Notes under the pieces: model-generated
Told to the model about the DNA's origin: nothing
Databases searched by the model: none
The model's input: only the letters and a program-made list of their open reading frames with translations
Translations under genes and position numbers: made by a program
In this document: piece after piece, positions 8,820 to 60,415 of the stretch
How positions within the stretch are numbered: position 1 is the first letter of the stretch
How the letters are laid out: every line of letters starts with the position of its first letter
Source of the DNA: Candidatus Eiseniibacteriota bacterium
GTDB taxonomy: Bacteria > Eisenbacteria > RBG-16-71-46
NCBI GenBank assembly: GCA_025360715.1
Contig: JANYBS010000073.1
Span: forward strand, 3,048-67,047
Length of the DNA stretch: 64,000 nucleotides
Direction of reading: 5' to 3'

Positions 8820-8975
8820 CGGCGTCTTCCGTGGGTCCGGGAAACTACGAAGGCGTGGGGCCGGAATGGTTATCGGCGCCGGGCGGGGCGCGCTTGCGCG
8901 TCACATTTTCGCGGCGATCTCAGCCCGGGAAAGCAGCGGGACACACGCCCTGGGCCTGCGTCCCGCGCGATGGCC

Positions 8976-9530: not shown

Positions 9531-9738
9531 AGGCTCCGCGTGGGGTTGAGGCTGGTCGCGCGCGCGCTGGCCGGGTGACCTGCGCGCACCGGTATCGAGA
9601 AGCGATTCGGCCGGAGTGTGCGTACCTTCGCGCGGGCCGTCAAGCGCACGCGGTGCGCTGTGGCGCAACGGCTTGCCGCCGCGCTAGACTTGACGCCAGC
9701 ACCACATCCCGAGTGTCCTTCCGGCTTCCAAGGAACCC

Positions 9739-16267: not shown

Positions 16268-16338
16268 GCGCACGCTCCGGTTCTGGACCTGCGTCCGGTC
16301 GTCCCCACCGTCGCCACCGCCTCGCGCAGGACGCGCCC

Positions 16339-22502: not shown

Positions 22503-25500
22503 ATGACGGACCGAACCCACTCGCGCACCCGTAGCGCACGCGCAGCCATGTCCCGCGCGGTCCTTGGCACGGCCATGGCGGCGGTTCTCTTCGCAGGCGC
22601 GATGCTCGCCATGCCGGCCACCGCGGCGCCCGCGCTTGTCCATCTGGCGCCGGCCTCACCGGGCGCGGTGCGCTTCACGATCAACGTGCCTGTCCCGAAG
22701 CTCGTACGCCTCGAAGCGGGCGACGCGACCGCGCGGCTGGACCTGGATGGTTTCCTACTCGAAGGCAAGCCGGGCGCGCCGGCGATGCCGGTTCGTGTCC
22801 TGCTCGTCGCAGTGCCGCCGCTGGGCGCAGTGCGCGTGTCGGGCGTCGCGTCCGAACTCCGCATCGATGAAGGTGTCCTGTTGGCGTCCACTGCAACGCG
22901 CGATGCGGCGGGCGAGGTGCACCAGATGCGCTCGAGCGCAGCCTATGGCGCCAAGGGCAGCGCGCAGCCCGAGGCGGCGAAGCTGCTCGATGTGACGTGG
23001 GTGCGCAATCAGCGCGTGGCGCGCATCGCGATCATGCCGTCGGCCTATGAGCCCTCGGCGCGCCGGCTCACGACGGCCGCGCGGATCGATGTCGAGGTCC
23101 AGGTCCAGCCCATGGACGTGCTGGGGCCGCCGGTCGAGACGAGCGATCCCTACGAGCCGGTCTACGAATCCGCGCTCGTGAACTACGCGCAGGGCAAGAA
23201 CTGGCGCCGGCCGGCCACCTCTGTGCTCGCCGCTGCGGCGCGGCGGATGGGCATGAGCGTCGCAGGCGTCACGGAGCTGGCGGCGCCGCCGGACACGAGC
23301 GTCTTCGTGGGCCGGCAGTGGGCGCGACTCGCCATCACGCAGGCGGGCTTCTATTCCGTGAACTATTCCAACCTGCGCCTGACGGCACTCATCAATCAGG
23401 GCAGCTTCGCGTTCGATTCGCTGCGGCTCTTCACGCTGCCCGGCTACCCGCAGTTGCCCGAGAACACGTATTGCGATTCCTGTGATCTCAAGGAAGTCGC
23501 GATCGGCGTGATCGACGTGGGCAACGACGGCCTGTTTTCGGTGAACGACGACACGTTCTACTTCTTCGCGCAGGGTCCGAGCGGCTGGGCGGACGACTAC
23601 AACCTCGCGCTCGCGGATACGCTCTACCTGAATCATCCGTATGAAACCCGCAACATCTACTACCTTACCGTCGCAACGGGACCGCTGCCGGTCGCGGGCG
23701 CGCCCAGACGCATCGGCCGCCGCGACGCCACGCCTCAGGTGGCGAGCGGCGCGACGCCGGTGACCACGTTCGCCGATCGCGCGCACTTCGAACAGGACGT
23801 CGAGTACTGGCCGGACGCGAATCCACGCGGCAGCTCGCTCTTCTGGGAGAAATGGTACTGGCGCAGTCTGAGCAACACGGCCACGGGCAATTCGTTCACG
23901 ACCACATTCGCGTTACCCGGCGCCGACACGCTGCAGGCTGCGCGGCTGCGCCTGCGGCAGTGGGGCCTGACGGACAACGTGATCTTCAACGGCTGCGGTA
24001 ACACGACACCGGACCATCTTCTCGACGTGCGGCTGAACGCTTTCGGCCTGCGACGCGGTGCCTGGAACAGCTTCATCGCGGCGTACGGTGGTCAGTACAC
24101 GTTCGATACCACGGGCGTATTCCTGAACCGCGTGAGCAACTCGCTCCAGCTGACGGTGCCGGTGGTCTCCGCGCCGGATTGTCCGAACCGCTCCGACCGC
24201 AGCGCGCTTGCGTGGTTCGACCTCTACTACCAGCGCTTCTTCCAGCCACAGGACGATGTGTTGCGCTTCCGCGGCCCTGCCACCGCGGGGCTCTACCGCT
24301 ACGATGTCGGACCGTTCAAGTCGAGCGCGCAGCCGCGGCTCTTCGATATCACCGATCCGCTCTCGCCGTCCGAACTCACCGCGGCGGCCACGGCGTTCGG
24401 GCCGGTCGCGGGCGGGTTCCAGCTGTCGATCGAAGACACGCAGAGCGTCCAGCATCGTTTCCTGGTCGTGCCCGATTCGTTCATCACGGCCGTGCACCTG
24501 CCGGTGACAGCGATCGACGATGCGCCCTTCACGAGCTTGGATAACCTGCGCAGCCGCACGAACGGCGCGGACTACCTGGTCATCTACTACGACGGTTTCG
24601 CCGCTGCCGCCACGGCGCTGGGAGATGCGCGCAAGCTCAAGCTGCCGCTCACCGACAAGCCGGCGCCCTACGTGACCAAGACGATCCCGATCTCGGCGCT
24701 GTACGACCAGTTCTCGGGCGGCCGTACCGACCCTGCCGCGATCCGCAACTTCCTGCGCGCCGCTTACTTCAATTGGTCGCTGCGTCCGCGCTTCGTGACG
24801 TTCATCGGCGATGCGTCTTACGACTACAAGAACATCACCGGCCGCGCGCCGAGCGGCCAGCCCGGTTCGCTGTTGCCCACCTATGAGAACGGTTTCGACG
24901 ATCATTTCAACGTGCTGCGCCAGTTCGCCACCGACGACTGGCTGCTCAATGTGAATGACGCGAACTCGTTCGTCCCGGATTTCTACGGCGGGCGCCTGCC
25001 GGCCGACGATGCGGCCTCGGCGCTCAAGGTGGTCAATGGCAAGATCCTCGCCTACGAGAATGCAGCGCCGGTGGGCGAGTACCGCAACCGAGTCATGCTG
25101 ATCGCGGACGACGACCAGCAGGGCGAGAGCCCCGACCAGCTTGCGTGGACGCACGTACAGCAGACCACCGATCTGGATACCACGAGCACGCCCGATCACC
25201 TGGACCGCACGTACGTGTACTTGCATACCTATCCGTCGGGCACGGGCAACACCAAGCCGGGTGCGCGCGCCGACATCAAGAACACCATCAACAACGGCGT
25301 CGCGCTGTTCAACTACGTGGGCCATGGCAGCCCGTTCAAGATCAGCGACGAGAGCGTGTTCATCGATTCCGACGCGGGCACGCTCACGAATGGCCTGCGC
25401 ATGCCGCTCTTTGTGGCGGCCTCCTGCGACGTGGGCAAGTTCAACGATCCGACGGTGCAGAGCCTGGGCGAGCGTCTGGTCATGGCTTCTGACGCCGGCG

Positions 25501-26888
25501 CGATCGGCGTCATCTCGGCCACCGAGCAGGCGTTCAGTTCGGACAACAGCCTGCTCAATCGCTTCCTCTACAAGCAGATGTTCCGGCGCGACGCGGTGGT
25601 GGTGGGTGCCGACACGCTCGCGGGCTTCGGCCAATACCATATGGCGGTCTCCGCCGCGCTGCTGTCGGCCAAGATCAGCGCGCCCGGCACGAACGAGATC
25701 AACAACTCCAAGTATCAATACATGGGTGATGCCGCGACGCGGCTCAACGCCCCGCGCCTGTGGGCCGACATCCAGCTCACCGACGTGGCTGGGGTGCCGA
25801 TCACTGAGCTCAAGCGCGGCCAGACGGTCGTGGTGAGTGGTCGCGTGCTCGATGCGCCCGGCGGCACGTTCACGCCATTTGACGGCGTGGCGAGCCTGTT
25901 CGTGGAGGATTCGGCGCCCATCGACAACACCGGGCTCAATCCCGATCCGAACTTCCTGTCGCACTACTATTCGGTGAACTACCGCTTCAGGGCGGGTCCG
26001 ATCTATCACGGCGACGTCACCTGCACGAACGGTACATTCGAAGGGCGCTTCGTCGTACCGGCCGATGCGACCACCGGTGCGTACGGTCGTGTGCGCGCGT
26101 ACCTCGACGGCCGTACGCTCAACGCGAAGCGCGACGACGATGGTGCGGGCAGCGTCAAGGTGCAGGTTTCGAGCGCGCCGATCGTGACCAGCGACGCCGA
26201 AGGGCCGCGCATCACGCTGTCGTTCGTGGGCGGCGCCACGTCGGTGCGCCCCGATGCCCAGTTGCGCATCGACCTCTTCGACCAGAGCGGCATCATGACG
26301 ACCGGGCATTCGCTGCAGAACTCGATCGTGGTGACCATCGACGACAACACCACCTCGCGCGTGGACGTGACGGGATCGTTCCGCTATGCGGCGGATTCGT
26401 ACCAGTCCGGCACGGCCAGCTTCGCGCTGCCCAGCCTGAGCGCGGGCCACCACCGTATCCGCGTCTCGGCGGCCGACAACCTGGCCTCAGGCATCAACGC
26501 TTCGGCCCATCGAAACAGCTCGACGCTCGAGTTCGACGTCATCAGCACGCCGACGCTTAATGTGGCGCGCACCTATCTCTTCCCGAACCCCACCCGCTCG
26601 AGCGGGCCGGGGGCGGGCGGGACGTTCATCGTCGACGCACCGGGCGACTCGGTGAACACGCTCATCCGGCTGTATACGGTCTCGGGAAAGCTGATCCGGA
26701 CGCTCAAGTCGTTCGGAGCGCTGGGACAGGTCCAGATCCCGTGGGATGGCCGGGATGCCGAAGGGGATGCCCTGGCCAATGGCACCTATCTCTATAAGGT
26801 GTATGTGAATGGCCGACTTGCCGATGGAACCAGCAGCGCCAGCCAGAAGGCTATCGCCGAAGGCCGTGTCGTCATCGTTCACCATTGA
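22503..26888 (+). CDS. porU: PorU-like C25 (gingipain-family) peptidase with T9SS C-terminal domain (T9SS C-terminal signal peptidase candidate)
   Basis: Signal peptide MTDRTHSRTRSARAAMSRAVLGTAMAAVLFAGAMLAMPATA. C25 catalytic blocks YVGHGSP (His) and FVAASCDVGKF (Cys). C-terminal Por_Secre_tail ...YLFPNPTRS...RLYTVSGKLIRTL...GTYLYKVYVNG. Immediately followed by an OM-barrel gene, matching the porU-porV synteny of Bacteroidota. Confidence 0.75.
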   Translation: MTDRTHSRTRSARAAMSRAVLGTAMAAVLFAGAMLAMPATAAPALVHLAPASPGAVRFTINVPVPKLVRLEAGDATARLDLDGFLLEGKPGAPAMPVRVLLVAVPPLGAVRVSGVASELRIDEGVLLASTATRDAAGEVHQMRSSAAYGAKGSAQPEAAKLLDVTWVRNQRVARIAIMPSAYEPSARRLTTAARIDVEVQVQPMDVLGPPVETSDPYEPVYESALVNYAQGKNWRRPATSVLAAAARRMGMSVAGVTELAAPPDTSVFVGRQWARLAITQAGFYSVNYSNLRLTALINQGSFAFDSLRLFTLPGYPQLPENTYCDSCDLKEVAIGVIDVGNDGLFSVNDDTFYFFAQGPSGWADDYNLALADTLYLNHPYETRNIYYLTVATGPLPVAGAPRRIGRRDATPQVASGATPVTTFADRAHFEQDVEYWPDANPRGSSLFWEKWYWRSLSNTATGNSFTTTFALPGADTLQAARLRLRQWGLTDNVIFNGCGNTTPDHLLDVRLNAFGLRRGAWNSFIAAYGGQYTFDTTGVFLNRVSNSLQLTVPVVSAPDCPNRSDRSALAWFDLYYQRFFQPQDDVLRFRGPATAGLYRYDVGPFKSSAQPRLFDITDPLSPSELTAAATAFGPVAGGFQLSIEDTQSVQHRFLVVPDSFITAVHLPVTAIDDAPFTSLDNLRSRTNGADYLVIYYDGFAAAATALGDARKLKLPLTDKPAPYVTKTIPISALYDQFSGGRTDPAAIRNFLRAAYFNWSLRPRFVTFIGDASYDYKNITGRAPSGQPGSLLPTYENGFDDHFNVLRQFATDDWLLNVNDANSFVPDFYGGRLPADDAASALKVVNGKILAYENAAPVGEYRNRVMLIADDDQQGESPDQLAWTHVQQTTDLDTTSTPDHLDRTYVYLHTYPSGTGNTKPGARADIKNTINNGVALFNYVGHGSPFKISDESVFIDSDAGTLTNGLRMPLFVAASCDVGKFNDPTVQSLGERLVMASDAGAIGVISATEQAFSSDNSLLNRFLYKQMFRRDAVVVGADTLAGFGQYHMAVSAALLSAKISAPGTNEINNSKYQYMGDAATRLNAPRLWADIQLTDVAGVPITELKRGQTVVVSGRVLDAPGGTFTPFDGVASLFVEDSAPIDNTGLNPDPNFLSHYYSVNYRFRAGPIYHGDVTCTNGTFEGRFVVPADATTGAYGRVRAYLDGRTLNAKRDDDGAGSVKVQVSSAPIVTSDAEGPRITLSFVGGATSVRPDAQLRIDLFDQSGIMTTGHSLQNSIVVTIDDNTTSRVDVTGSFRYAADSYQSGTASFALPSLSAGHHRIRVSAADNLASGINASAHRNSSTLEFDVISTPTLNVARTYLFPNPTRSSGPGAGGTFIVDAPGDSVNTLIRLYTVSGKLIRTLKSFGALGQVQIPWDGRDAEGDALANGTYLYKVYVNGRLADGTSSASQKAIAEGRVVIVHH

Positions 26889-26995
26889 AACACCCACTCG
26901 AGAGTTTTTTTCGGGAGAAATCCAAAGCGTCGCGGTGTAGTACCCCGGGCAACGTCTCCCGCTCGCAGGGTTCGCGATCTCTCAGAGGAGTATCT

Positions 26996-27946
26996 ATGCG
27001 TTTGTCTACCACGTTGATCCTGAGCGTTTTACTGGGGCTCTGCCTCGCTGCCTCCGCGCAGGCGCAGGGCACCGGCCGCTCGCTGGATATCCAGCCTGGC
27101 GCACGCCAGAACGGTCTGGGAGCGGCGGGAGTGGCTCTTGCCGAGGATGCCAGCGGCGTGACCTGGTGGAACCCCGCAGGACTCGGGTTCGTGAACAAGG
27201 CTGCCGTCGAACTCAGCTATGCCCAGTTGGTTCCGGGCCTCGCGAGCGACGTGAGCTACAACTACGCGACGTTCGTGAAGCCGATGCAGGGCTGGGGCGC
27301 TTTCGGCGTCGGCCTTGTGTTCCTTTCCTATGGTACGAGCGAGCAGACCGACAACAGCGGCAACGTCATCGGCAGCTTCACGTCGAACGAGCTCTCGCCG
27401 GCGCTGTACTACGGCACGAAGCTGCTGCCCGAGCTTTCGATCGGCGCATCGCTCAAGTACATCCGCATCCAGCTCGCGCCTTCGCAGCAGTCCGGCGTCG
27501 GCTCCACGTTCGGACTCGACGTCGGTGCGCTCTATCGTATCCCGGCCGCGCGCCTGAACCTGGGGATGAACGTACAGAACCTGGGTCCGGCCGTGACGTT
27601 CCTGAACGAAGACCAGAAGAGCCCGCTCTCGCGCAACCTCAAGGTCGGCGCGGCGTGGGAGGCGACCTCCTCCAAGGAGTTCCGCCTCATGGTCGTGGGT
27701 GACTTCAACCAGTCGCTCGTCACCAACCAGTTCCGCACTTACAACGGCGGACTCGAACTTCGTTACACGGACCAGATCGCCGGTCGAGTCGGTTACTACG
27801 ACGATCCTCTGGGCGACATCAAGGACCTCACCTACGGCATCGGTGTGGGTTGGAAGGGCCTGAGCCTGGACTACGCCAGTATCCCGCAGGCCAAGGGTTC
27901 CGGGCTGCCGAACGTGACCAAGATCACCATCGGCTATCGCTTCTGA
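26996..27946 (+). CDS. porV: PorV/LptO-like (or PorP/SprF-like) outer-membrane beta-barrel protein
   Basis: ATG at 26996 with GAGGAG upstream. Signal peptide MRLSTTLILSVLLGLCLAASAQA. Alternating amphipathic beta-strand pattern. The C-terminal residue is Phe (...KITIGYRF). Position directly downstream of porU. At 316 aa it is shorter than classical PorV (~390 aa), so the family assignment is tentative. Confidence 0.5.
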   Translation: MRLSTTLILSVLLGLCLAASAQAQGTGRSLDIQPGARQNGLGAAGVALAEDASGVTWWNPAGLGFVNKAAVELSYAQLVPGLASDVSYNYATFVKPMQGWGAFGVGLVFLSYGTSEQTDNSGNVIGSFTSNELSPALYYGTKLLPELSIGASLKYIRIQLAPSQQSGVGSTFGLDVGALYRIPAARLNLGMNVQNLGPAVTFLNEDQKSPLSRNLKVGAAWEATSSKEFRLMVVGDFNQSLVTNQFRTYNGGLELRYTDQIAGRVGYYDDPLGDIKDLTYGIGVGWKGLSLDYASIPQAKGSGLPNVTKITIGYRF

Positions 27947-27954
27947 TCGAATCC

Positions 27955-30900
27955 GTGATCAATCTCGCCACGCTCCTGAGCACATCGCGAAGGTCATCGA
28001 AGGTCGTGAGTCTGGCCGTGCTGGCGCTTCTCGCCGGCGCGGCCGTCGCGCATCCGGATGCGCTCACGGTCACGCCGCTCAACACGCAGGCAGGGCTGGC
28101 CAGCGCTCGCGACAAGGGCATCATCGCCCGCGGCGCGCCCATGAACGCGTCCGAACGTACGGTCCTCGAGGCGCGCCTGGCGCGCCAGCGCGCATTCCTG
28201 CCGGTGCAGCGCCAGCTCTTCTCGCCGGGCCGCGCCATCGATCGCTCGCTGTTCGGCAACCGCCGCGTGGGCTGGCAGCCGCCGATCGGCGCGAGCCGCG
28301 ACCCCCGACAGCCGATGCGCATGCAGCGCTTTGGCACGACGATCGCGCCGCCTGACACCATTCACCTGGCGATCATCCGCATCGACTTCCTGAATGACCG
28401 CGGCGGCGCCAAGTCCTCGGGTACCGGCCGGTTCAACCTGGATGCCGCCGACACCGTGGACAATCCGGTCGACCGCCCACCGCACAATCGCGCCTTCTAC
28501 GTCTCGCAGGGCGAGGCGTTGCGCCGTTACTACGACCAGCAGTCCTATGGCCGTGTCGTGGTGGACATCGACGTGTGGCCCACACAGCAGGACAGTGCCT
28601 TCCACCTCACCGACATGGCCGACCTGGGGCCGTGGTCGTTCGGCCAGGGTGTGTTCCAAGCCGCGGTCAAGATGATGCGCGGTATGTTCTTCGCTGCCGA
28701 CTCGCAGTCCACCGCGCTGGGCAACCGCATCCCGTGGGATCACTATGACCGCTATTGTCTGGTGCACGCGGGCAGTGATCTTCAAAGCGACATCAAGCAG
28801 GACTCCAAAGAAGACATCCCGTCGTTCACGCTCTTCATCAGCGACACGGACCGCGTGATCTTCCCGGATTCGACCACGCGCCCGATCGACCGCGCGTCGT
28901 TCATCCCCGAGACCATCAATCAAGATGGCTACTACGGCGCGATCAATGGCGTGATGGCGCACGAGAACGGCCACAACATGTTCGGCTTCCTCGACGTGTA
29001 CAACGTCGAGACGGGTTACCCGGTGGTGGGGTACTGGTCGCTCATGGACAGCGGCAATCTGGTGGGCTCGCGTCTGCAGCTCAAGGACGGCAGCGAGATC
29101 TTCGCGACCGGCCTGCTGCCGCCGAGTATCGATCCGCTGCAGCGCGATTTCATCGGCGGGGGCCTACGCTTCGCCGAGCCGGCGTGGGGCGAGACGCTGA
29201 GCATCGCGAACAACGAGCGGAATAACCTCATGTACAAGGTGCCGCTCTCGTCGGATGAATACCTGCTGCTCGAGAACCGCTACCTGTCGCCGGCAGCGGC
29301 CGTGCAGCTCGAGGCCGACAGCATCACGCACGTGGTGCTGGGCCCCAAATCGCCCGACCGCTACGAGTACGACGCATTGTTGCCGGGCAGCGGCATCCTG
29401 GTCTGGCATATCGATGCGAGCGTGATCCCGTTCGAGACCTCGCTGCGCCCGAATCCCGACTTCAGCCTGAACGCGAATCCCGCGCGCTTGGCCGATGAGG
29501 TGATCCAGGCCAGTGGCTTGGACGACCTGGGCGACGTGAGCTCGCCGTACCTGCTGGGTAGTCCGCTCGATCCCTACCAACGCTCGATCAATCCATCGTT
29601 GAGTGACTCCACACAGCCGAACCTGATCCCCAACCAGAAGACGCGTCCGCACGTGCGCATCGACTTCCTCGATGACACGGGAGCGACGCAGCACTTCGTC
29701 GCCAACCGCACTTGGGCGCAGCCGGGCTGGCCGATCGTGGCCAGCTTCCCTCCGGGCGGTCCGTTGCCGCTCGCGATCGACATGGACGGCGACCGCAACC
29801 TGGAAGTCTGCTGGGCCGGCGGCCGCGCGGGCCGCGCGGACAGCGCGGCGGTCTTCGCCGTGCGCTCCAACGGAACGGGGCTGCTGGGCACGTCGCTCGA
29901 GTTGACGAGCCTGCCGCAACGCCCGCGGCCGTTGATCGCAGCCGTCGTCACCGGCGATCCCGATCTGGGCACGGGGCCGTCTCTGGTCGCCGCGACCACG
30001 TATCACTACGGCGCCGCCGACACGACCGGTGGGCGCGTTTACTTGATCGATCACAACGGCGCTCAGTCGTTCGGCTGGCCGGTGAAGTTGCCGTCGCCGG
30101 CGTCCACATCGCCGGTGATCGCCGGCGCGTGGCCGAACATCTTCGTCTTTGTGGGCGCTGAGGATGGCCGTGTATATGTGCTCGATCGCACGGGTGCGGT
30201 GGTGGCCACGAGCAATACGTCACTGGGCAGCGCGATCACCGGGCGGTTGGCGTTCTGGCAGGGCGGCCCCACTCCGAACACCGAGGTCGCGGGCGCGAAG
30301 AACCTGATCGCCGCCGGCTGTGCGACGGGTCTCGTGTCGACGTTCGCGTTCAACGCATCGGCGCTCACCCAGGAAGGCCAGATGCAGGTCACGTCGTCGA
30401 CCACATTCACTCCCGACTTCCTGTGGCTGCGCATGAACGGCACCGGCGCGCAGGCTGCAGCGGATTGCGCTGCGGGCGGCCCCGTGCTGGCGGTGCACCA
30501 CGCCGACAAGATCTGGGCGTTCTGCCCGAGTGGCGCGGCATTGCCGGGCTGGGGGCACTCGCTGGGCGACACCGTCGTCGCGGGCCTTGGCGCCGGCGAC
30601 CCCGACGGCGATGGCTTCCCCGAAGTGCTCTATCAGACCGTCACGTCGCAGGTGGGTTTCCTCAACCGTGACGGCTATCCGTCGCCGGGTTGGCCCAAGG
30701 CCGGCACGACCGAGCACCTGCGCACGCTCTCGCCGGCACTCGCACTTGATGTCGACCACGATGGCCGCTCCGAGGTCGTGGCGCTCGATGGCAGCGGCGT
30801 GATCGCGGCGCTCGATGCGCGCGGCAAGACCCCGGCGGGCTGGCCGTTGGCGACAGGGGCGGGCGCGTCGGGTTCCGGTGTCGCCGCGGATCTCGATCGT

Positions 30901-32144: not shown

Positions 32145-32149
32145 AGGAC

Positions 32150-33055
32150 GTGCGACGCATTCCTGTTCTGCTGCTCTCGCTCGCATTCGCGGTCCTCACG
32201 GCAAGTGCCGTGTGCGCCGGAAGCCTGACCGGCTTCACGCTCGAACCGGTCACGCCAGCACCTTCCTTGGTGCTGGTCTCCGATCTTCTGGCTGCGCCCG
32301 AAGTGGACTTCGGCGGCTCGACGATCAGCTCCTTCGGCGAGAAACCCAAGGGCGAGAAGAAGAATGCAAAGAAGGGCAAGCACGAGCCGGCGCCGGCAGC
32401 CGACGAGGACGTCGGCCTGGGACTGGGCGCCGAACGCGCGCAGATCCTGCTGCGATCGCTCACGGTGCCGGGTTGGGGTCAGGCCACGTTGGGCCACCGC
32501 CACGCAGCGGCGTTCTTCGGTACGATCGAGCTGGGCGTGTGGACGGCCTTCACGGCATTCCATATCCAAGAGGCGATGCGCACCGAGAGTTCGCTGCGCT
32601 CGGCGCGGTTGGACGCGGGCATCGACCTTCACGGCCGCGATGATGAGTTCCGGCGCATCGTGGGCGCGTTCGCGAGCAGCGATGAATACAACTTGTTCGT
32701 CGTCACGCGCGATGCCGCGAATCTCTTTCTCAACGATGTGAATGCACCCGATATATCGCGCTATCGCGCCTACATCGCCGAGCACTCGCTCAAGGGCAAA
32801 GACGCGTGGGCGTGGTCGAGCAACGATACGCGCGACCGCTACGCTGCTCGCCGCAAGGATGCCAATCGCGCATCGTTGCGCGCGAACACCGCACTTGGCA
32901 TCGCGATCGCGAACCGGCTCGTGAGCGCCCTGCACGCCTCTCGTGCAGCGGGCCGCGCGCACCGCGCCCCGGCGCACAGCTGGAACTTCGAGATCACGCC
33001 TGCACCGGGCGTGGACCCGACTGCGTTCCGCGCCGGAGTGAGCGCGAGCTTCTGA
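32150..33055 (+). CDS. Secreted hypothetical protein with a Lys-rich segment (paralog family A)
   Basis: GTG at 32150 preceded by GAAGGA. Signal VRRIPVLLLSLAFAVLTASAVCA. Contains EKPKGEKKNAKKGKHEP. It has VPGWGQATLGHRHAAAFFGTIELGVWTAF, which parallels the segment in the previous gene. It ends ...SASF. Confidence 0.4.
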   Translation: MRRIPVLLLSLAFAVLTASAVCAGSLTGFTLEPVTPAPSLVLVSDLLAAPEVDFGGSTISSFGEKPKGEKKNAKKGKHEPAPAADEDVGLGLGAERAQILLRSLTVPGWGQATLGHRHAAAFFGTIELGVWTAFTAFHIQEAMRTESSLRSARLDAGIDLHGRDDEFRRIVGAFASSDEYNLFVVTRDAANLFLNDVNAPDISRYRAYIAEHSLKGKDAWAWSSNDTRDRYAARRKDANRASLRANTALGIAIANRLVSALHASRAAGRAHRAPAHSWNFEITPAPGVDPTAFRAGVSASF

Positions 33056-33072
33056 GCCCGCGGCCGCGCGCC

Positions 33073-34077
33073 ATGCTGCCGCCGCGACTCGCGACACTGC
33101 TCGCACTCGCGCTCACGCTCACGGCGAGTCTCGCCTACAGTGCGCAGCCCGATTCGACGCTCGTCGCTGGCGCCACGCCGCTCAGGCTCGATTCGCTGGG
33201 CGTCTATGGTCACGCCGGCACTGACGACGGCGGGCTGGTGGCGCCCTCCGGGCTGGCGACCGATCAGTTCGCGCACATCTGGGTGAGTGATGCGAGCACG
33301 AACCGCCTGCAGCGCTGGGATGCCGCGGGGCAGTGGCTGGGGCAGAGCGGCTCGCTTGGCAGTGACGCGAACCAGTTCCGCCGGCCTGCGAGCGTTGCTC
33401 GCCTGGGATCCTCGGGCGTGGCGGTGCTGGACATCGAGAACCGCCGCGTCGTGACGTATGACCTGCTCGGCCGCCTTGCCGTGGTGCTGGTGCAACTCGA
33501 TGCCGCAGCCCTCGAGGAGCAGACGGGCCGTATCACGCCGGTGTCCCTGGCCGCGGACCGCGGCGGCGCGCTGTACGTGGCCGATGGCGATCGCGACCGC
33601 GTGCTGGCGTTCGACTTCGCCGGGCGGCTGGTGCGTACCGTGGGCAGCTATGGCGCAGCACCCGGCAGCTTCCGCGGACTCGCGAGTATCGCCGTGGCGC
33701 CGCATGGCGAGTTGGTCACGGTCGAGCGGCCGGTGAGCCTGCCGCGCAAGCGCGCGAACGCCGCCGATAGTCTTGCGGCCTCGGGCGCGCGTGTGCAGCG
33801 GCTCGATGCGGGCGGTGCGCCGATCGCCTCGTGGCTCGTGCCGGCCGTATCCGAAGAGAGTTTCGCGCTGGCCGTGGACGACTCGGGCCGTGTGGCGGTC
33901 ACCTGCGCGTCGGCCGGCACGGTGACCGTGTACTCGCGCGAGGGCCGAGTGCTGGCAGCGCGCGAAGGCCTCGCTCAGCCTGGCGCGGTGGCATGGATGC
34001 CCGACGGCGCGCTGCTGGTGGCCGAAGCGGGACGCGGCCGGATCCTGCGCGTCGCGCCTTCTGCCGCGAAGCCGTGA
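33073..34077 (+). CDS. Secreted NHL-repeat (six-bladed beta-propeller) protein
   Basis: Signal MLPPRLATLLALALTLTASLAYSA. Repeated ...IWVSDASTNRLQRWD..., ...GALYVADGDRDRVLAFD..., ...LLVAEAGRGRILRV... blocks typical of NHL repeats. Confidence 0.6.
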   Translation: MLPPRLATLLALALTLTASLAYSAQPDSTLVAGATPLRLDSLGVYGHAGTDDGGLVAPSGLATDQFAHIWVSDASTNRLQRWDAAGQWLGQSGSLGSDANQFRRPASVARLGSSGVAVLDIENRRVVTYDLLGRLAVVLVQLDAAALEEQTGRITPVSLAADRGGALYVADGDRDRVLAFDFAGRLVRTVGSYGAAPGSFRGLASIAVAPHGELVTVERPVSLPRKRANAADSLAASGARVQRLDAGGAPIASWLVPAVSEESFALAVDDSGRVAVTCASAGTVTVYSREGRVLAAREGLAQPGAVAWMPDGALLVAEAGRGRILRVAPSAAKP

Positions 34078-37000
34078 TGCGGCACGCGGCGCGCATCGCG
34101 CTGCTGCTGGCCGGCGTGCTGGGTGGCGGCGCAGGTCAAGGCATAGGGAACAACGTGACGCCGCTCTTGCTGCTGCCGGCCGCGGCGCAGGCGAGCGAGG
34201 CGCGCGATCCCGGTTGCGGCGTCACGCGCATCGTCGCGGTCTCGGGCGCGGTCACCTACCGGTTGCCGCACGGCTTCGTTCGCGCGGGCAGCGATTCGCT
34301 GTGGACGCGTGCGCGCACCTGGGTGCGCGGCAAGGACTACCTGCTCGATGCGTTGCGCGGCGACGTGCGTGTGCTGGCGTCGCTCACGCCAGGCGAGACG
34401 CTCTACGTCGCGTCCTGCTGGCTGCTGCGCCCGCCGCCCTTGGAATACGCGCGCGCCTACTACCGGCCGCTGCGGATGGATGAGCCTGCGGCGGCCGCAC
34501 CGGATTCCGCGAACGTGCAGGCCGCGCCGCGGCCATCCACGGGCCGCGAACTGGCCAATGCTCCAGGCGGTGCGCAGCTGAGCGTGACGGGCAACAAGAC
34601 GATCGCGGTGGAGTTCGGCTCGTCACAGGATGCGGCGCTACGGCAATCGCTCGATCTGGCGGTGATCGGCCAGCTCGCGCCGGGGGTGGAGTTGACCGGC
34701 GTGCTCTCGGACCGCAACACGCCACTCACCGCGCAGGGCACGACGCAGGACTTGCAATCGCTCGACCGTGTGCTGCTCGAGCTCAAGGCCCCGCGCGGCA
34801 GTGCGTCGTTCGGCGACATCCCGCTGGTGTTCGACCGCGGCCAGTTCTCGCGACTGGAACGGCGTGTGCAAGGCGTGCGCGGCGAAGTGCATGATCACGG
34901 CTTCACGGCTTCGCTGGCGGCGGCGAGCGCGCAAGGCGAGTACAACCGCATGCAGTTCGTCGGCGTGGACGGCCTGCAAGGGCCGTACGCACTCACCGAC
35001 CGCACGGGCAGCACCGCGATCACCGTGGTCGCCGGCAGCGAAGTGGTCACCGTCGACGGCGCGCGCATGACTCGTGGCGAGAGCGCGGACTACTCGATCG
35101 ACTACGAACGCGCTCGCATCACATTCTCCAACCGCCGCCCGGTCTCGAGCGCGAGCCGCATCACGGTGGAATACCAATATGCGGTCACGCGTTACCGCCG
35201 CAACCTCGCGGCGTTCACGGGCGGCTGGGGCACCGGCGCGTACCGCTTGTTCGTGAACGCCATCCGCGAGAGTGACGACAAGGGCCGGCCGTTGGATCTG
35301 ACCTTCTCGGCGCAGGACCTGCTGACCCTGGCCGCTGCAGGCGATTCGGCGGCGCGCGCGGTGGGCAACGGCGTGACGGCTGGCACCGGCGATTACGATT
35401 CGTTGCGCGTGGCGCTGGATACACTCATCTATGTCTTTGTAGGTTCCAACGCGGGCCACTTCGACGTGCGGTTCGCGCGTATCGGGCCGGGTCAGGGTGA
35501 CTACGCGGATTCCGCCGTGGTCGCGGGCCGCACGTCTTACCGGTACGTGGGCCCGGGTGGGGGCGCATTCGTGATCGGTCGCGCGCTGCCGTTGCCTGAA
35601 TCGCATGACCTGCTGGCACTGGGCGGCAGCGCGGCGTTCGGCGCGCTCACGCTCGAAGCCGAAGGCGCCACGTCGAAGCGCGACCGCAATCTCTACTCGG
35701 CGCTGGACGACCAGAATGATGGTGGTGCTGCCGGGCGTCTGAGCGCGCAACTCGAAGGGCGTCTCGGCCCGCTGCCGGGCCGCGCCGGCGCGCAGGTGGG
35801 CGCGCGTACCGTGGCGCGGCGTTTCGAGTCGTTCTCGCGCCTGGAGCGTCCGTTCGCCGAAGAGGACTGGGGCTTACCCGTGGGCGCCGACCTGGAACAC
35901 CAGCGCCGCGGCGACGGTGCGCTGTGGTGGCAGCCGCGCGTGGGCAGCGAACTGCGCGTGGACGTGAGCGCGCTCAGCACCCCCGACGGCTACCGCGGCA
36001 CGCGCCGCCATGGGGAATGGACGGGCGCCGGGCGGCTCTCCACCCACGCGCTGTGGCTGGAGTCCGACGGCACGCTGAGTGGCGTACGTTATGGCGCGGC
36101 CGGGCGTTCGCGCTGGCTCGCCGAGGCGCGCTTCACGGGCGGCGTGCTGGTGCCCGCGGTGCACGCCGAGCATGATCGCCGGCGCACAGCGGCGGATTCG
36201 GCGGCCAGTGTGAACCGCGTCGATGAAGTGACGGGCGAGCTGGCCTCGGGCGCGCAGGTACCGTGGAAGCTGCTCGCCGGCCTGGGCGAGCGCCGCGAGA
36301 CGCAGGAGGCTTCGGCGGCATCCAGCGCTCGAGCGCGCCGCGCGACCACGTACCGGCTGCAGGCCGAGAGTCCGCCCACGGCGCCGGTTGGCGTGGGGCT
36401 GAGCGGCCTGCGACGCGTGGCGCATGACGCGCTCGCCGCGCGAACGTCGAGCGATCTGGCGAGCGTCCGGCTGCGTGGCGAGCGCAAGCGCTGGGGACTC
36501 TCGGGCACCATGAACGTGGAGGTCACGAGCGAAGCCGAGAACCAGCGCGTGCGGACGCTGCAATTCGTGGGCGCGGGCCGCGGCGCCTACGACGCGTTCG
36601 GCAACTTCGTGGGCACCGGCGACTACGATCTGGTGCTCACGGTGAGCACACTTCTCGACCGCTATGCGCGCGTGGCGACCAGTGCGCATGCGGCGTGGGT
36701 GTTCGGCAAGAGCGAGATGTGGCGCGGCTCACGCATGGAGTTCACGCTCGAGGATGAAGCGCGCCGCCGCGGCGAGCTGCGTCTTGCCGACGCGATCCTC
36801 TCGACGGGTATCGCGCTCGAGGACGGCGCGCTCTCTCGCGGCGCGGTGCTGCAGCGTCTAGAGGGCGAGCTGGCGCCCGGCTCGCGGATCGCGGCGCTGC
36901 GCATGCGCGCGGAGCGCCGCGTGGCCGCGGACCGATCGTTCAGTGATTTCGCACAGACGACCGACCAGCGTCAGGGCTCGCTGCGTTGGCGCGCGAGGCC

Positions 37001-37478
37001 GGGCAAGGAGACCACGGTGGAGACCGAAGCGCGCGTCAACTGGCAGCGCGCGACTCAAGAGCTGGCGGCCGGCAGTCGCTACGACCGCACGATCGTGGAG
37101 GAGGGCGCGCAGACGCAGTGGGTATGGCAGCCGGGCCCGGCGCTGCGGTTGGCTGGCGCTGCGGACCTGGGGTTCTCGAGGCCGCAGGGGCAGTTGGATG
37201 CCACGCGTACGATCAAGATCGGCCCCGACGTGAGTATGGCCGTGGGCGCGCGCGGCCGCGCCGAACTGGTGCTGCGCCGCGCGTTCGTTTCGGGCCCGCC
37301 GGCGAGCGCGCTGATCCCGAGTGTGGATCCCGCGGGCGCCGCGCGCTGGGACGCGCACGCGCGCTTCGACCTGCGCTTGCATGAGACAACGACCTTCGGC
37401 TTGAGCGGCGACCTGCGCGAGCGCCCGGACCGCCCGACCGTGGTGAGTGGCCGGGCAGAAGTGCGAGCGTTCTTTTGA
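34077..37478 (+). CDS. Large (1133 aa) secreted/outer-membrane-associated protein, possibly TamB/AsmA-like (hypothetical)
   Basis: The ATG overlaps the upstream TGA. N-terminal signal/anchor MRHAARIALLLAGVLGGGAG. Beta-rich and Arg-rich composition. The C-terminus ...GRAEVRAFF has a terminal aromatic like OM beta-signals. It is immediately followed (4-nt overlap) by an Omp85-family gene. Confidence 0.45.
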   Translation: MRHAARIALLLAGVLGGGAGQGIGNNVTPLLLLPAAAQASEARDPGCGVTRIVAVSGAVTYRLPHGFVRAGSDSLWTRARTWVRGKDYLLDALRGDVRVLASLTPGETLYVASCWLLRPPPLEYARAYYRPLRMDEPAAAAPDSANVQAAPRPSTGRELANAPGGAQLSVTGNKTIAVEFGSSQDAALRQSLDLAVIGQLAPGVELTGVLSDRNTPLTAQGTTQDLQSLDRVLLELKAPRGSASFGDIPLVFDRGQFSRLERRVQGVRGEVHDHGFTASLAAASAQGEYNRMQFVGVDGLQGPYALTDRTGSTAITVVAGSEVVTVDGARMTRGESADYSIDYERARITFSNRRPVSSASRITVEYQYAVTRYRRNLAAFTGGWGTGAYRLFVNAIRESDDKGRPLDLTFSAQDLLTLAAAGDSAARAVGNGVTAGTGDYDSLRVALDTLIYVFVGSNAGHFDVRFARIGPGQGDYADSAVVAGRTSYRYVGPGGGAFVIGRALPLPESHDLLALGGSAAFGALTLEAEGATSKRDRNLYSALDDQNDGGAAGRLSAQLEGRLGPLPGRAGAQVGARTVARRFESFSRLERPFAEEDWGLPVGADLEHQRRGDGALWWQPRVGSELRVDVSALSTPDGYRGTRRHGEWTGAGRLSTHALWLESDGTLSGVRYGAAGRSRWLAEARFTGGVLVPAVHAEHDRRRTAADSAASVNRVDEVTGELASGAQVPWKLLAGLGERRETQEASAASSARARRATTYRLQAESPPTAPVGVGLSGLRRVAHDALAARTSSDLASVRLRGERKRWGLSGTMNVEVTSEAENQRVRTLQFVGAGRGAYDAFGNFVGTGDYDLVLTVSTLLDRYARVATSAHAAWVFGKSEMWRGSRMEFTLEDEARRRGELRLADAILSTGIALEDGALSRGAVLQRLEGELAPGSRIAALRMRAERRVAADRSFSDFAQTTDQRQGSLRWRARPGKETTVETEARVNWQRATQELAAGSRYDRTIVEEGAQTQWVWQPGPALRLAGAADLGFSRPQGQLDATRTIKIGPDVSMAVGARGRAELVLRRAFVSGPPASALIPSVDPAGAARWDAHARFDLRLHETTTFGLSGDLRERPDRPTVVSGRAEVRAFF

Positions 37479-39316
37479 AAGAGTGGCGTAAGCGCGTGGC
37501 TTCGCGGGCCGGCGGCCCGCTCGTCCGATGGCATCACGCCTCCGGCGCGAAGCGGCTGGCTTGCGGCGGGTGCGGGACGACCGCCCGAACCCGATTGGCG
37601 GCAGGCCTGCTCGTGTGCACAGCGCTTCTGTTTTTTGCGACGAATGCTCTCGCCGCGCCCGCGCGCCTTGCACTCTCGGGCTGGCCGGGCATCGCGCGTG
37701 AGGGCGATGCGGTGCTCCAGCCTGCCGTGCGCTCGCCGGGCGATTCGCTCGCACTGTCGCGTGTGCTGGGTGATGCGGCGGCGGTGTTGCAGGACCAGGG
37801 GTGGCTCGATGCGCGACTCACGGGGGACTGGACGCCTGCGCCCGATCCCGTGTTGAGCGTGCGCGTGATGCCGGGCGTGCGCTACCACTGGGCGGGCATC
37901 GCGCTCGATGCCGCGCCGGGCGACTCGAGTGTGTTCGCGGCGGCGCTCGCACCGGCGAGCGGTGCGGTGGCGAGTCCGGGTGCGTTGCGCACCGGGATCG
38001 AGCGCGCGGTGCGCGATGCCGAAGCGGCGGGCTATGCCTGGGCGCAGTTGGGTGTGAGCGCGTGGACTCAGGATTCGGGCGTGGTGCGCGTGCGGCTGCG
38101 CGGCACACGCGGGCCACGGGTGCAGGTGAGCCAGGCGCGCATCGATGGCTTGAGCACCACGCGCGAGGATGTGGCGCAGCGCGCGGTGGGCAGACTGGTG
38201 GGCCGGCCGTTCGATCCGCTCGCCATTCGCGCGAGTACGCAGCGGCTCGAGCAACTGGGCGTGTTCTCGCGTGTGGAATATCTGGGCCTGGCGGGCGGCG
38301 GCGATTGGCAGCAGGGCATCGTGCGCTGGCGCGTGAGCGAGCCGCGTTACAACACGTTCGAAGGCGCGGTCGGCGTGCAGGGCGCCGCGGGCGTGACAGG
38401 ACTCGCGCATCTGGAACTGGGCAACCTGGCGGGTACCGCGCGCGCGATGGGCCTTACGTGGCAGTCGCGCGGCAAGGGTCTCACGGACTTCTCGGCGCGC
38501 TATGGTGAGCCCCTGGTGATGGGGTTGCCCGTCAAGCTCGAACTGGCGCTGGCGCAGCAGATCCAGGACACGCTCTACTCGCGCTTCCGCTATGGTGCGA
38601 AGGGTCGTGTGGCCCTGTCGGCGGGTCAACGGTTCGAGGCGGGGTTCGAGGAAGAACGCGTCGTGCAGCCCCACGGCGCCGTCCAGGAGGCGGATCTGCA
38701 GAACACCACATTCGCGCTCGAGCGCGACCTGCGCGACGACGCGCTCGCGCCTCGGCGCGGCACGCGTCTGCGCGTGGGCGCGAGCCAGGTCTACAAGCGC
38801 GAGACGCTGCGCGCGACGGCCTTCAGCGCGGCCACCAAGCGCCGCGCGCAGGCAAGTGCCGCCGACGCGCACTTCGAGTGGCACCGGGCCACGGGCACGC
38901 GTTCGGGCGTGGCGCTCGAGGCGAGCGCAGCGGCGCGCTTCAGTGACCAGCGCGTGCTGCCGGACTGGGAACGCTATCCCGTGGGAGGCGCGGCGTCCCT
39001 ACGGGGTCATGCCGAAGAAGAGTTCAAGGCCGACCGTTACGCGCTCTCGCGTCTGGAATACCGTTGGTTCCTGGACTCGGCGGGCTCGCGCGCGTCGCTC
39101 TTCTGGGACCACGCGTTCGTGCAGTCGCGCGATGCGGTTCTCGATGCCACCGGCGCTGCCTCGGGCGACGCGCTGCACCGCCAGCAGGCCGACGGCCTGG
39201 GCTTTGGTCTGCGCTTGCCGGCGGCCGGCGGCGTGGTGGACCTGGACTATGGTATCGCGCCGGGACGTGGCTTCCTCGAAGGCAAGATCCACCTGCAACT
39301 GGTGACGGCATTCTGA
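37475..39316 (+). CDS. Omp85-family (TamA/BamA-like) outer-membrane protein with POTRA domains
   Basis: 613 aa. N-terminal signal peptide. POTRA-like segments (VRVMPGVRYHWAGIALD..., VRLRGTRGPRVQVSQARIDGL...REDVAQRAVG...). A C-terminal barrel ending ...GKIHLQLVTAF. Size is consistent with TamA. Confidence 0.65.
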   Translation: MKEWRKRVASRAGGPLVRWHHASGAKRLACGGCGTTARTRLAAGLLVCTALLFFATNALAAPARLALSGWPGIAREGDAVLQPAVRSPGDSLALSRVLGDAAAVLQDQGWLDARLTGDWTPAPDPVLSVRVMPGVRYHWAGIALDAAPGDSSVFAAALAPASGAVASPGALRTGIERAVRDAEAAGYAWAQLGVSAWTQDSGVVRVRLRGTRGPRVQVSQARIDGLSTTREDVAQRAVGRLVGRPFDPLAIRASTQRLEQLGVFSRVEYLGLAGGGDWQQGIVRWRVSEPRYNTFEGAVGVQGAAGVTGLAHLELGNLAGTARAMGLTWQSRGKGLTDFSARYGEPLVMGLPVKLELALAQQIQDTLYSRFRYGAKGRVALSAGQRFEAGFEEERVVQPHGAVQEADLQNTTFALERDLRDDALAPRRGTRLRVGASQVYKRETLRATAFSAATKRRAQASAADAHFEWHRATGTRSGVALEASAAARFSDQRVLPDWERYPVGGAASLRGHAEEEFKADRYALSRLEYRWFLDSAGSRASLFWDHAFVQSRDAVLDATGAASGDALHRQQADGLGFGLRLPAAGGVVDLDYGIAPGRGFLEGKIHLQLVTAF

Positions 39317-44671: not shown

Positions 44672-44681
44672 AGGGCGAGCG

Positions 44682-60378: not shown

Positions 60379-60415
60379 AACGCAAGTGGTCCCATCGCCA
60401 CACATCGAGGTATCC

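Follow-up and report, generated by a model that had tools for sequence, protein, structure and literature searches.

The DNA analyzed here, called the window, is a 64,000-nt stretch from Candidatus Eiseniibacteriota (GCA_025360715.1, contig JANYBS010000073.1, positions 3,048 to 67,047, forward strand). The best explanation of its region from ~22.5 to 39.3 kb as a whole, which we consider about evenly balanced between right and wrong, is that its genes make up the outer-membrane part of a type IX secretion system (T9SS). With the same divided confidence, we propose an outer-membrane T9SS module consisting of a cap-less SprA-like translocon with a dedicated Omp85-family protein and a propeller as partners. 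The giant protein encoded by g7 is, in its predicted structure, a half-size relative of the T9SS translocon SprA/Sov, and comparison among loci strengthened the support for an evolutionary link between the Omp85 gene and the porU-porV/barrel cluster.

A row of eight genes

The preliminary description of this DNA had listed eight consecutive same-strand genes from porU to the Omp85 gene, and a check of the open reading frames (ORFs) found eight co-directional ORFs, all on the + strand (Table 1).

Table 1 Genes of the porU-to-Omp85 row, with positions in the window
Gene or product	Position	Strand	Description
porU	22503..26888	+	C25-type T9SS sortase / C-terminal signal peptidase, with its own CTD
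porV-family outer-membrane barrel	26996..27946	+	T9SS cargo shuttle family
M6-like metalloprotease	27955..31356	+	FG-GAP repeats, T9SS type-A C-terminal domain; probable cargo
g4	31356..32144	+	262 aa, secreted or envelope, DUF5683-like; ends -RRF
g5	32150..33055	+	301 aa, paralog of g4; ends -ASF
NHL-repeat β-propeller	33073..34077	+	Signal peptide, no lipobox, no CTD
g7	34077..37478	+	1133 aa, predicted giant outer-membrane β-barrel, SprA/Sov-like, half-size (cap-less)
Omp85-family protein	37595..39316	+	TamA-like architecture; probable start, public gene call starts at ~37613

An operon had been read from the spacing of these genes, and most of the tight junctions are real. The g4 start overlaps the M6 stop in a TGATG at 31354-31358, a second TGATG (34075-34079) joins the NHL gene to g7, and the g4/g5 (32144/32150) and g5/NHL (33055/33073) junctions were confirmed in the sequence, g5 having a GTG start with GGAGG upstream. 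The porV/M6 junction, given as 27944/27955, is indeed close, with the porV stop at 27946 and the M6 start at 27955. The 4-nt overlap of g7 and the Omp85 gene (37475/37478) is likely wrong, as it requires a TTG start that adds ~40 residues before the signal peptide. Because an identical protein in the database has 567 aa and most orthologs have ~565 to 575 aa, the Omp85 start is probably at 37595-37613, which would leave a gap of ~117 to 135 nt after g7. Among the other starts, porU has an alternative ATG at 22548, and the most likely porV start is the ATG at 26996, which lies 107 nt past the porU stop, has AGAGGAG upstream and yields a clean signal peptide.

Tight spacing is a habit of this genome and therefore no special mark of the porU-to-Omp85 set. 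The unrelated flanking genes dnaE and accA overlap by 4 nt, the Omp85 gene meets a DinG-like helicase gene in a TGATG (39314-39318), and the helicase gene overlaps hutH by 4 nt. A consensus scan of the region detected no + strand terminator between genes and a single promoter-like site, in the 420-nt gap ahead of porU; one such site is not above chance expectation. The gene row, most identities and most junctions of the preliminary description thus stand; the 4-nt overlap and the meaning given to spacing do not, the operon argument being weak where unrelated flanking genes are equally tight.

The first three products fit their earlier assignments. PorU, described as a C25 peptidase with a CTD, passes NCBIfam NF033707 (T9SS_sortase; 497 bits, cutoff 420), has Pfam Peptidase_C25 (2.4e-71), Propeptide_C25 and C-terminal FlgD_ig/Por_Secre_tail domains, and carries the signal peptide MSRAVLGTAMAAVLFAGAMLAMPATA. 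The PorV-like barrel is upheld at the family level: it passes the NCBIfam PorV/PorQ family model (PorV_fam; 196 bits, cutoff 90) and matches Pfam PorV (1.6e-15), with 134 bits against the PorV equivalog, under its cutoff of 250. Its gene is the most conserved secretion gene of the cluster (median identity, 70%). The M6-like protein, named as a CTD protease, has an intact HENGH at residue 336 and a Por_Secre_tail/FlgD_ig CTD at residues 1051-1116; its matches to TIGR03296 (M6 domain; 1.3e-15) and NF052323 (T9SS-dependent M6-like; 3.4e-34) are below cutoff. It is a probable T9SS cargo. CTD cargo genes within the window lie at 9739-13452, 27955-31356 and 46061-47809, and no genes for SprE, SkpA or GldK/N were noticed there.

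The paralogy claimed for g4 and g5 also holds, as a distant, profile-level relation (hhalign 96.3%, E = 1.7e-9) that plain BLASTP does not detect (E = 0.34). A PGAGQ motif in g4 and a PGWGQ motif in g5 are each followed by a hydrophobic helix. No Pfam model matches g4 at E ≤ 0.01, DUF5683 reaching E = 0.08; a g5 homolog in the divergent locus L082 scores 27.9 bits, above the DUF5683 gathering threshold of 26.7.

The giant barrel and its neighbors

The protein encoded by g7, whose length and C-terminal -RAFF the translation confirms, had been taken for a TamB/AsmA-like protein. It has no Pfam match, and neither Pfam nor NCBIfam gives a TamB or AsmA match. Of the two folds in question for 34077-37478, a β-taco and a giant barrel, the AlphaFold (AF2) model is the latter, with ~36 to 40 long antiparallel strands as counted from the DSSP string. 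A signal peptide precedes a small N-terminal β domain (~47-115), and further domains are inserted at ~296-360 and 406-508. From this model and its C-terminal aromatic signature, g7 is predicted to be a giant outer-membrane β-barrel. The fold and domain results reject TamB as its identity, so the pair would be a SprA-like barrel and an Omp85 protein with TamA architecture.

In a Foldseek search of the PDB, the best four matches of the g7 model were SprA chains (5.5e-10 to 1.5e-6), followed by TonB-dependent transporters and LptD. SprA forms a barrel of 36 strands, and >150 kDa of the protein lies outside the membrane (PMC12611786; PMC10994853). Without this outer cap it would, by our arithmetic, be about as large as g7 (122 kDa). 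The SprA model TIGR04189 matches 31 of 43 diverse g7-family members at E ≤ 0.01 (best, 4e-10), and g7 itself scores 18.7 bits, with the family cutoff at 200. These matches are confined to one inserted domain of ~50 residues (g7 ~300-366, SprA profile ~600-654) that also weakly matches phage tail-tube models; they may therefore reflect a shared module and are not proof of barrel homology. Surveyed FCB phyla except Chlorobiota are reported to have SprA, and Ignavibacterium album was among the surveyed species (PMC12611786). If the reported SprA is a separate, full-length protein, the g7-type barrel could be a paralog that does something else.

The neighboring Omp85 protein matches Pfam Omp85 (1.5e-11) and POTRA models. 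It has a signal peptide, and its AF2 model (pLDDT 89) contains three β-α-α-β-β POTRA units and a 16-strand barrel of the BamA/TamA type, with Foldseek matches to BamA (1e-28) and TamA (3e-25). The earlier assignment as a POTRA/Omp85 barrel is thus sound, and the POTRA count makes the architecture TamA-like; the length of 613 aa is likely ~567 aa. Residues of a loop-6-like GG...LRG motif are invariant across the family. The propeller is, as described, a standard NHL propeller (Pfam NHL, 8e-13; PDB NHL propellers, 2.7e-28) and is probably periplasmic.

Conservation, mechanism and alternatives

Comparative genomics is stronger evidence than junction spacing. Gene order from porU through porV, M6, g4, g5 and NHL to the barrel is colinear in 38 of the 38 Eisenbacteria loci that extend far enough upstream, and Omp85 directly follows the barrel gene in 57 of 57 testable Eisenbacteria loci. 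Conservation within the phylum is by itself weak evidence because Eisenbacteria synteny is broadly frozen; the helicase gene and hutH also follow in most of these loci. Among diverse loci, Omp85 lies downstream of the barrel in 17 of 56 testable cases, and NHL and Omp85 genes around the barrel nearly always come together (both in 13, neither in 25, Omp85 only in 1 and NHL only in 0). Carriers of the propeller-barrel-Omp85 triad form several branches deep in the barrel tree. The triad recurs amid unrelated neighbors (chemoreceptor, cytochrome bd and RNase R genes) in distant metagenome lineages, and in several distant triad lineages the barrel stop overlaps the Omp85 start. The barrel gene also follows porV, alone or together with porU, in three divergent loci whose flanks differ (L080, L082 and L083); L080 lacks the M6-like gene and is otherwise syntenic. 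In L156, porU is 7.5 kb away, and most triad-bearing metagenome loci have no porU or porV detected within 10 kb. That the Omp85 gene follows the barrel amid wholly different flanks bears out the claim that it is tied to the cluster. The literature searched holds no description of the Omp85-barrel-propeller partnership, in line with the remark that the association was not known to have been described.

A large derived Ignavibacteria clade has the barrel alone among housekeeping genes, with no Omp85, propeller or porV nearby, which counts against the proposed Omp85-partnered translocon.

In the proposed module, the g7 barrel would be the channel that takes CTD proteins across the outer membrane; PorV would dock on it and hand cargo to PorU, as in Flavobacterium. 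Omp85 would be a private partner of the barrel, most likely a dedicated insertase that folds the unusually large g7 into the outer membrane, with the propeller probably aiding it in a BamB-like role. g4 and g5 may seal or anchor the complex. The earlier idea of a module dedicated to inserting T9SS barrels can be kept once modified, with the neighboring barrel as likely client or partner and no TamB component. We know of no system in which a dedicated Omp85 assembles a single barrel, and this counts against the proposal.

Omp85 could instead be a permanent structural or functional translocon subunit, its POTRA arm and the propeller forming, on the periplasmic side, the receiving platform for a cap-less channel of the SprA type and replacing the SprE/SkpA/PorK-N scaffolds of Bacteroidota. 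The strict co-occurrence of propeller, barrel and Omp85 in deep lineages, with frequent stop/start overlap, is typical of stoichiometric partners, and the window's apparent lack of SprE, SkpA and GldK/N fits. However, the ordinary BamA/TamA fold and invariant LRG are expected of an active insertase, and the Ignavibacteria clade retains its barrel without an adjacent Omp85; we think this reading unlikely. We are just as doubtful that the triad serves an outer-membrane function outside T9SS, for example as a channel for another polymer or in uptake, adjoining porU-porV in Eisenbacteria only through frozen gene order. That view draws on the many triad loci without porU or porV nearby, on dnaE-accA and helicase-hutH being just as syntenic, and on the restriction of the SprA sequence signal to one small domain. 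Against it, porV, whether or not joined by porU, lies ahead of the triad in at least three divergent lineages that differ in their outer flanks (Eisenbacteria with L080, L083 and L082), porU is not far off in L156, and SprA is the best structural match. In Bacteroidota, sprA is commonly unlinked to porU/porV, so loci elsewhere in which the genes are unlinked do not argue against a role in T9SS.

That the organism uses this Omp85 as its housekeeping BamA, reduced to three POTRA domains and placed after the barrel gene by chance, seems to us quite improbable. Public pipelines name its orthologs "BamA" or "BamA/TamA family," and BamA is its best structural match, but it scores 50 bits against the BamA equivalog TIGR03303 (cutoff 297) and lacks two of five POTRA domains. 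Moreover, the neighborhood is not the usual bamA-skp-lpxD type, and the presence of Omp85 tracks barrel and propeller across unrelated neighborhoods, which is unexpected for a housekeeping gene. The original interpretation, a TamB/TamA-like translocation and assembly module on the porU-porV operon, is scarcely credible. Omp85 has the three-POTRA architecture and size of TamA, and g7 is β-rich with a length like that of TamB; against this, g7 has no TamB (DUF490) or AsmA match and no inner-membrane anchor, and has a cleavable-type signal peptide and the -RAFF outer-membrane signature.

Comparison with known systems

SprA/Sov (Flavobacterium johnsoniae; PDB 6H3I, 6H3J, 8GL6 and 8GL8) resembles the modeled g7 as a giant outer-membrane β-barrel of ~36 strands, in the inserted domain detected by the SprA HMM, and in context, g7 adjoining porV and porU near CTD cargo genes. 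It differs in size (~2400 aa versus 1133 aa), and g7 fails the SprA threshold. g7 has no room for the extracellular cap, which closes off SprA and contributes to CTD binding. The Omp85 and propeller partners of g7 are not known for SprA, and its vicinity showed no genes for Plug, PPI, SprE or SkpA.

The side-by-side PorU-, PorV- and M6-like CTD trio of the window recalls the NCBIfam models NF052324, NF052325 and NF052323 (PorU2, PorV2 and a T9SS-dependent M6-like inactivated metalloprotease), which, from their consecutive accession numbers, we infer to describe one gene neighborhood. The window proteins match all three below threshold. The window PorU passes the canonical PorU model and not the PorU2 model, and the M6-like protein is not obviously inactivated, since it retains the HEXXH motif.

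The Aim operon of Porphyromonas gingivalis (PGN_0296-0301), which holds PorG, a UppS-like protein, the BamA-like Omp85 PGN_0299 and SkpA, is a partial Bacteroidota precedent (PMC12773653) in that it groups T9SS parts in one operon with an Omp85 and factors of outer-membrane biogenesis; SkpA is a biogenesis-type protein recruited into the extended T9SS translocon. Its Omp85 is a general BamA in a widely conserved uppS-bamA-skp cluster, and the operon lacks SprA/Sov and PorU/PorV, whereas here a reduced Omp85 lies directly 3' of a SprA-like gene.

With TamA-TamB, the Omp85 protein shares three POTRA domains, a 16-strand barrel, its size and an adjoining partner gene of >1100 aa. TamB, however, is an inner-membrane-anchored β-taco with DUF490, whereas g7 is a predicted outer-membrane barrel; the order here is partner and then Omp85, no TamA model matches the Omp85 of the window, and TamL of TamL-TamB is a lipoprotein, unlike this protein. 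The BAM complex likewise combines an Omp85 insertase fold bearing a conserved loop-6-like RG motif with a periplasmic β-propeller; for the L083 propeller homolog, the BamB family model gives a weak, sub-cutoff match (E = 5e-4). BamA has five POTRA domains rather than three, and BamB is an eight-bladed PQQ-like lipoprotein, whereas the propeller here is a six-bladed NHL protein without a lipobox. BAM serves general outer-membrane protein biogenesis, whereas the Omp85/propeller pair is genetically tied to one barrel gene.

The porU-porV gene row and its junctions

The window has a G+C content of ~67%, and its closest protein relatives are encoded in Candidatus Eisenbacteria metagenome-assembled genomes. 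Between 22.5 and 39.3 kb, eight genes lie in the same direction on the + strand. The row of genes that the preliminary description reported as an extended porU-porV operon is largely real.

Features of the window and of three comparison loci (L082, L083, and L156) that carry the barrel family
Locus	Feature	Position (nt)	Strand	Evidence or observation
Window	635-aa protein	6912-8819	-	C-terminal region RlpA/FtsN-like; N-terminal half resembles XrtA/PEP-CTERM system-associated ATPase (252 bits, below cutoff of 324)
Window	S8 subtilase	9739-13452	+	FG-GAP repeats; T9SS-type C-terminal FlgD_ig domain
Window	dnaE (DNA polymerase III alpha)	16339-21123	+	Overlaps accA by 4 nt; interrupted by intein with LAGLIDADG homing endonuclease (ORF residues ~821-1259)
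Window	porU	22503 or 22548 to 26888	+	NCBIfam T9SS_sortase (NF033707), 497 bits (cutoff 420); Peptidase_C25, 2.4e-71; C-terminal T9SS tail (FlgD_ig/Por_Secre_tail)
Window	porV family	26996-27946	+	PorV/PorQ family model, 196 bits (cutoff 90); PorV equivalog NF033710, 134 bits (cutoff 250)
Window	M6-like protease	27955-31356	+	HENGH intact; FG-GAP repeats; T9SS C-terminal domain
Window	g4	31356-32144	+	No Pfam match at E<=0.01
Window	g5	32150-33055	+	No Pfam match at E<=0.01
Window	NHL propeller	33073-34077	+	Pfam NHL; PDB NHL propellers
Window	g7 (1133 aa)	34077-37478	+	No Pfam match; C-terminus -RAFF
Window	Omp85	37595 or 37613 to 39316	+	Pfam Omp85 and POTRA
Window	Helicase (DinG-like), hutH, hutU, hutI	39316-45977	+	Follow Omp85; overlaps at first two junctions
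Window	582-aa protein	46061-47809	+	T9SS-type C-terminal FlgD_ig domain
Window	pilB-pilT-pilC (type IV pilus gene set)	58537-62726	+	PilB above equivalog cutoff
L082	PorV-family protein (858 aa)	984-3560	+	Fused to region with faint Reg_prop matches
L082	Second C25 peptidase gene	23185-23543	+	Nearby; dockerin-like match
L083	PPIC-type rotamase (SurA/PpiD-like; 582 aa)	15484-17232	+	Directly after Omp85
L156	BNR/sortilin-type propeller (1079 aa)	6326-9565	+	Directly upstream of barrel, in place of NHL propeller

Six close junctions had been cited as linking these genes. Five are as described, but the sixth, in which g7 and the Omp85 gene would overlap by 4 nt, is probably wrong. This overlap requires a TTG start at 37475, which adds ~40 residues before the Omp85 signal peptide. 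Because the identical database protein has 567 aa and orthologs mostly have ~565 to 575 aa, we place the start at 37595 to 37613, ~117 to 135 nt past the g7 stop. The end of porU and the start of porV are separated by 107 nt. Overlapping stops and starts also occur upstream, at dnaE/accA, and downstream, at Omp85/helicase and helicase/hutH. Tight packing is general to this genome, and spacing does not set the eight genes apart. We therefore dropped junction spacing as an argument for an operon, as unrelated flanking genes are equally tightly joined. A scan for promoter and terminator consensus sequences gave counts at chance level and was uninformative.

The porU product qualifies as PorU by its family model. 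The porV product failed the PorV equivalog model and passed the broader one, making it a member of the PorV/PorQ family; its orthology to PorV and not PorQ rests on adjacency to porU. The S8 subtilase and the 582-aa protein encoded elsewhere in the window probably represent further cargo of this T9SS.

The two small ORFs after the M6-like gene, g4 and g5, had been called paralogous secreted proteins. Their paralogy holds at the profile level (hhalign, 96.3%; E = 1.7e-9) and is visible only by profile-profile comparison, with BLASTP detecting no similarity (E = 0.34). In each, a hydrophobic helix follows a PGxGQ motif, and both may be related to DUF5683, for which one homolog passes the family threshold. 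Against PF18935 (DUF5683; gathering score, 26.7 bits), g4 scored 13.4 bits (E = 0.08) and g5 gave no match; the g5 homolog in L082 scored 27.9 bits, and other homologs scored 20 to 21 bits. Sequence searches of the PDB with g4 and g5 returned noise only.

A giant barrel with a SprA-like fold

Nearly all knowledge of T9SS comes from Bacteroidota, whose translocon, SprA, has a mass of 267 kDa and bears a cap. We modeled the 1133-aa g7 protein with AlphaFold2, using an alignment of 36 homologs (mean pLDDT, 77). The model contains a signal peptide, a small N-terminal β domain, ~36 to 40 long antiparallel strands, and two modest inserted domains, in agreement with the giant 36-strand outer-membrane β-barrel of SprA/Sov. 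In a Foldseek search of the PDB, the top four matches were SprA chains (8gl6_A, 5.5e-10; 8gl8_A; 6h3i_A; 6h3j_A), with TonB-dependent transporters and LptD ranking behind them. LptD itself was rejected as an identity for g7: its structures reached only 1e-4 to 1e-5, behind SprA, and Pfam gave no LptD or OstA match.

The preliminary description had taken g7 for a TamB-like protein. TamB is an elongated, periplasm-spanning β-taco with an open groove, an N-terminal inner-membrane anchor, and no outer-membrane barrel, and g7 does not match this description. Neither Pfam nor NCBIfam detected a TamB/AsmA domain in g7 at E<=0.01, and neither fold-search list for g7 contained a TamB/AsmA structure. 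Domain and fold evidence together rule out a TamB/AsmA identity; the earlier assignment was wrong.

Sequence evidence for a relationship to SprA is weaker and local. Against the SprA/Sov family model TIGR04189 (cutoff, 200 bits), g7 scored 18.7 bits (E = 2e-4) over residues 312 to 366 only, and 31 of 43 diverse members of the barrel family matched at E<=0.01 (best, 4e-10). The match is limited to an inserted domain of ~50 residues (~300 to 366 in g7; also seen in L082, L087, L101, and L149, four loci carrying the family), so homology of the barrel itself to SprA is unproven by sequence. The same domain is the most conserved stretch of the family, and it also weakly matches phage tail-tube/distal-tail models in 10 of the 43 members. 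Precomputed Pfam annotations of g7 homologs showed no domains, and a sequence search of the PDB with the family profile found nothing even at E<=10.

The SprA barrel has a lateral opening and is closed by a large extracellular cap, which exceeds 150 kDa (PMC12611786). No such cap is present in g7, which in its entirety has a mass of ~122 kDa and whose inserted domains total ~170 residues. Subtracting the cap from the 267 kDa of SprA leaves approximately the mass of g7, and "cap-less SprA" describes the model fairly. We assign g7 as a translocon with moderate confidence.

Conservation of the barrel, the Omp85 protein, and the propeller

The barrel family is large: a profile search recovered 3057 representatives clustered at 50% identity, and 2011 of these had E-values below 1e-30. 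At full length, the proteins have ~1100 to 1200 aa. Among the matches listed, none has an annotated Pfam domain or an informative name. In Eisenbacteria, the order porU-porV-M6-g4-g5-NHL-barrel is colinear in all 38 loci with enough upstream DNA, and an Omp85 gene lies downstream of the barrel in all 57 testable loci. The helicase begins within 400 nt after Omp85 in 44 of 58 loci, and a hutH gene was identified in 39 loci. Because these two genes usually follow as well, conservation within the phylum alone could reflect frozen synteny.

The more distant loci are informative. L080 contains porU-porV-g4-like-g5-like-NHL-barrel-Omp85 without the M6 gene and with different downstream genes; L082 contains the complete set between other flanks; and L083 retains porV through Omp85, with a PPIase gene next. 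A peptidyl-prolyl isomerase is a subunit of the Flavobacterium johnsoniae SprA translocon (PMC10994853). In L156, porU is on the opposite strand, 7.5 kb downstream. A further 89 loci were collected, 80 of them through a metagenome scan using a narrower alignment of the barrel family. Among the 56 testable for a downstream Omp85 gene, 17 had one and 39 did not. The presence of Omp85 and of the NHL propeller was coupled in these further loci (both, 13; neither, 25; Omp85 only, 1; NHL only, 0).

Outside Eisenbacteria, loci with the triad of propeller, barrel, and Omp85 genes have unrelated neighbors, such as a chemoreceptor, cytochrome bd, and RNase R. In a neighbor-joining tree of the barrel, the triad lineages form several deep branches, and the stand-alone barrels group together in a single large, derived clade. 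This clade belongs to Ignavibacteria, where the barrel sits amid housekeeping genes. Co-occurrence, differing flanks, and multiple deep branches indicate that the triad is a self-contained conserved module, coupled to porU-porV in Eisenbacteria and a few relatives.

The AlphaFold2 model of the Omp85 protein (pLDDT, 89) shows three β-α-α-β-β POTRA units followed by a 16-strand barrel. The best fold matches were BamA (1e-28) and TamA (3e-25; target-normalized TM, 0.62). Three POTRA units with a 16-strand Omp85 barrel are the architecture of TamA. Residues resembling loop 6 (GG...LRG) are invariant among the orthologs.

Possible functions and relation to known systems

Four points are directly supported: the identities of the PorU and PorV-family genes, the fold of the barrel, the architecture of Omp85, and the conservation of the linkage. 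Our main reading, which we regard as having an even chance of being correct, is that the barrel is a T9SS channel served by PorV and PorU, with Omp85 as its private insertase. The g7 barrel would form the channel; PorV would dock on it and deliver to PorU cargo bearing the T9SS C-terminal domain, of which the neighboring M6-like protease is an example. What links PorV to the barrel is genetic: porV is found upstream of it in 38 of 38 Eisenbacteria loci, as well as in L080, L082, and L083. Omp85 would insert the barrel, perhaps with the propeller as a BamB-like helper.

Alternatively, Omp85 might be a standing subunit of the channel. We consider this unlikely. There is precedent for such recruitment in SkpA, a biogenesis-type protein found in the extended translocon of F. 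johnsoniae (PMC10994853). A related and similarly doubtful proposal is that the triad is an autonomous protein-export machine, with Omp85 acting as a working part of a SprA-type channel that lacks the cap. Such a machine could represent a minimal, possibly ancestral T9SS translocon outside Bacteroidota, perhaps operating without the GldKLMN motor. It is also improbable, to about the same degree, that the triad is unconnected to T9SS. The idea underlying the earlier proposal, that the Omp85 gene is tied to outer-membrane parts of T9SS, was right, with better support now than the sequence alone could give.

Two further identities for Omp85 fare worse. A role as the housekeeping BamA, the closest fold, is very unlikely: the protein scored 50.4 bits against TIGR03303 (cutoff, 297) and has three POTRA units, against the five of BamA. 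Pairing it as a TamA with the 1133-aa protein as TamB is more improbable still. The TamA half of the suggested TamB/TamA-like pair survives as an architecture; the adjoining protein is no TamB, since this large neighboring gene encodes an outer-membrane barrel, and no TamB was seen within the window.

Under the main reading of a T9SS channel, a half-size SprA-like family would define the minimal needs of a translocon and the way in which cargo exits a cap-less channel. The conserved pairing of the barrel with a three-POTRA Omp85 and a propeller would represent either an insertase reserved for a single giant barrel or the recruitment of an Omp85 into a channel for secretion, and either outcome would inform how very large barrels are assembled. 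This question was posed for SprA and SusC in work on the Bacteroidota BAM (PMC12611786). At present, the barrel and Omp85 genes are labeled "hypothetical protein" and "BamA."

Our literature search, with incomplete coverage and thus giving absence of evidence only, turned up no report of T9SS in Eisenbacteria; within the same coverage, it returned no short SprA, no function for DUF5683, and no account of the barrel-Omp85-propeller linkage. SprA has been reported in the surveyed FCB phyla except Chlorobiota, with short and full-length forms not specified (PMC12611786). The systems closest to the triad are SprA/Sov, TamA-TamB, BamA-BamB, and the Porphyromonas gingivalis Aim operon, which brings together PorG, a BamA-like Omp85, and SkpA (PMC12773653). 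The triad differs from all four in combining a SprA-like barrel with an adjoining reduced Omp85 and a propeller.
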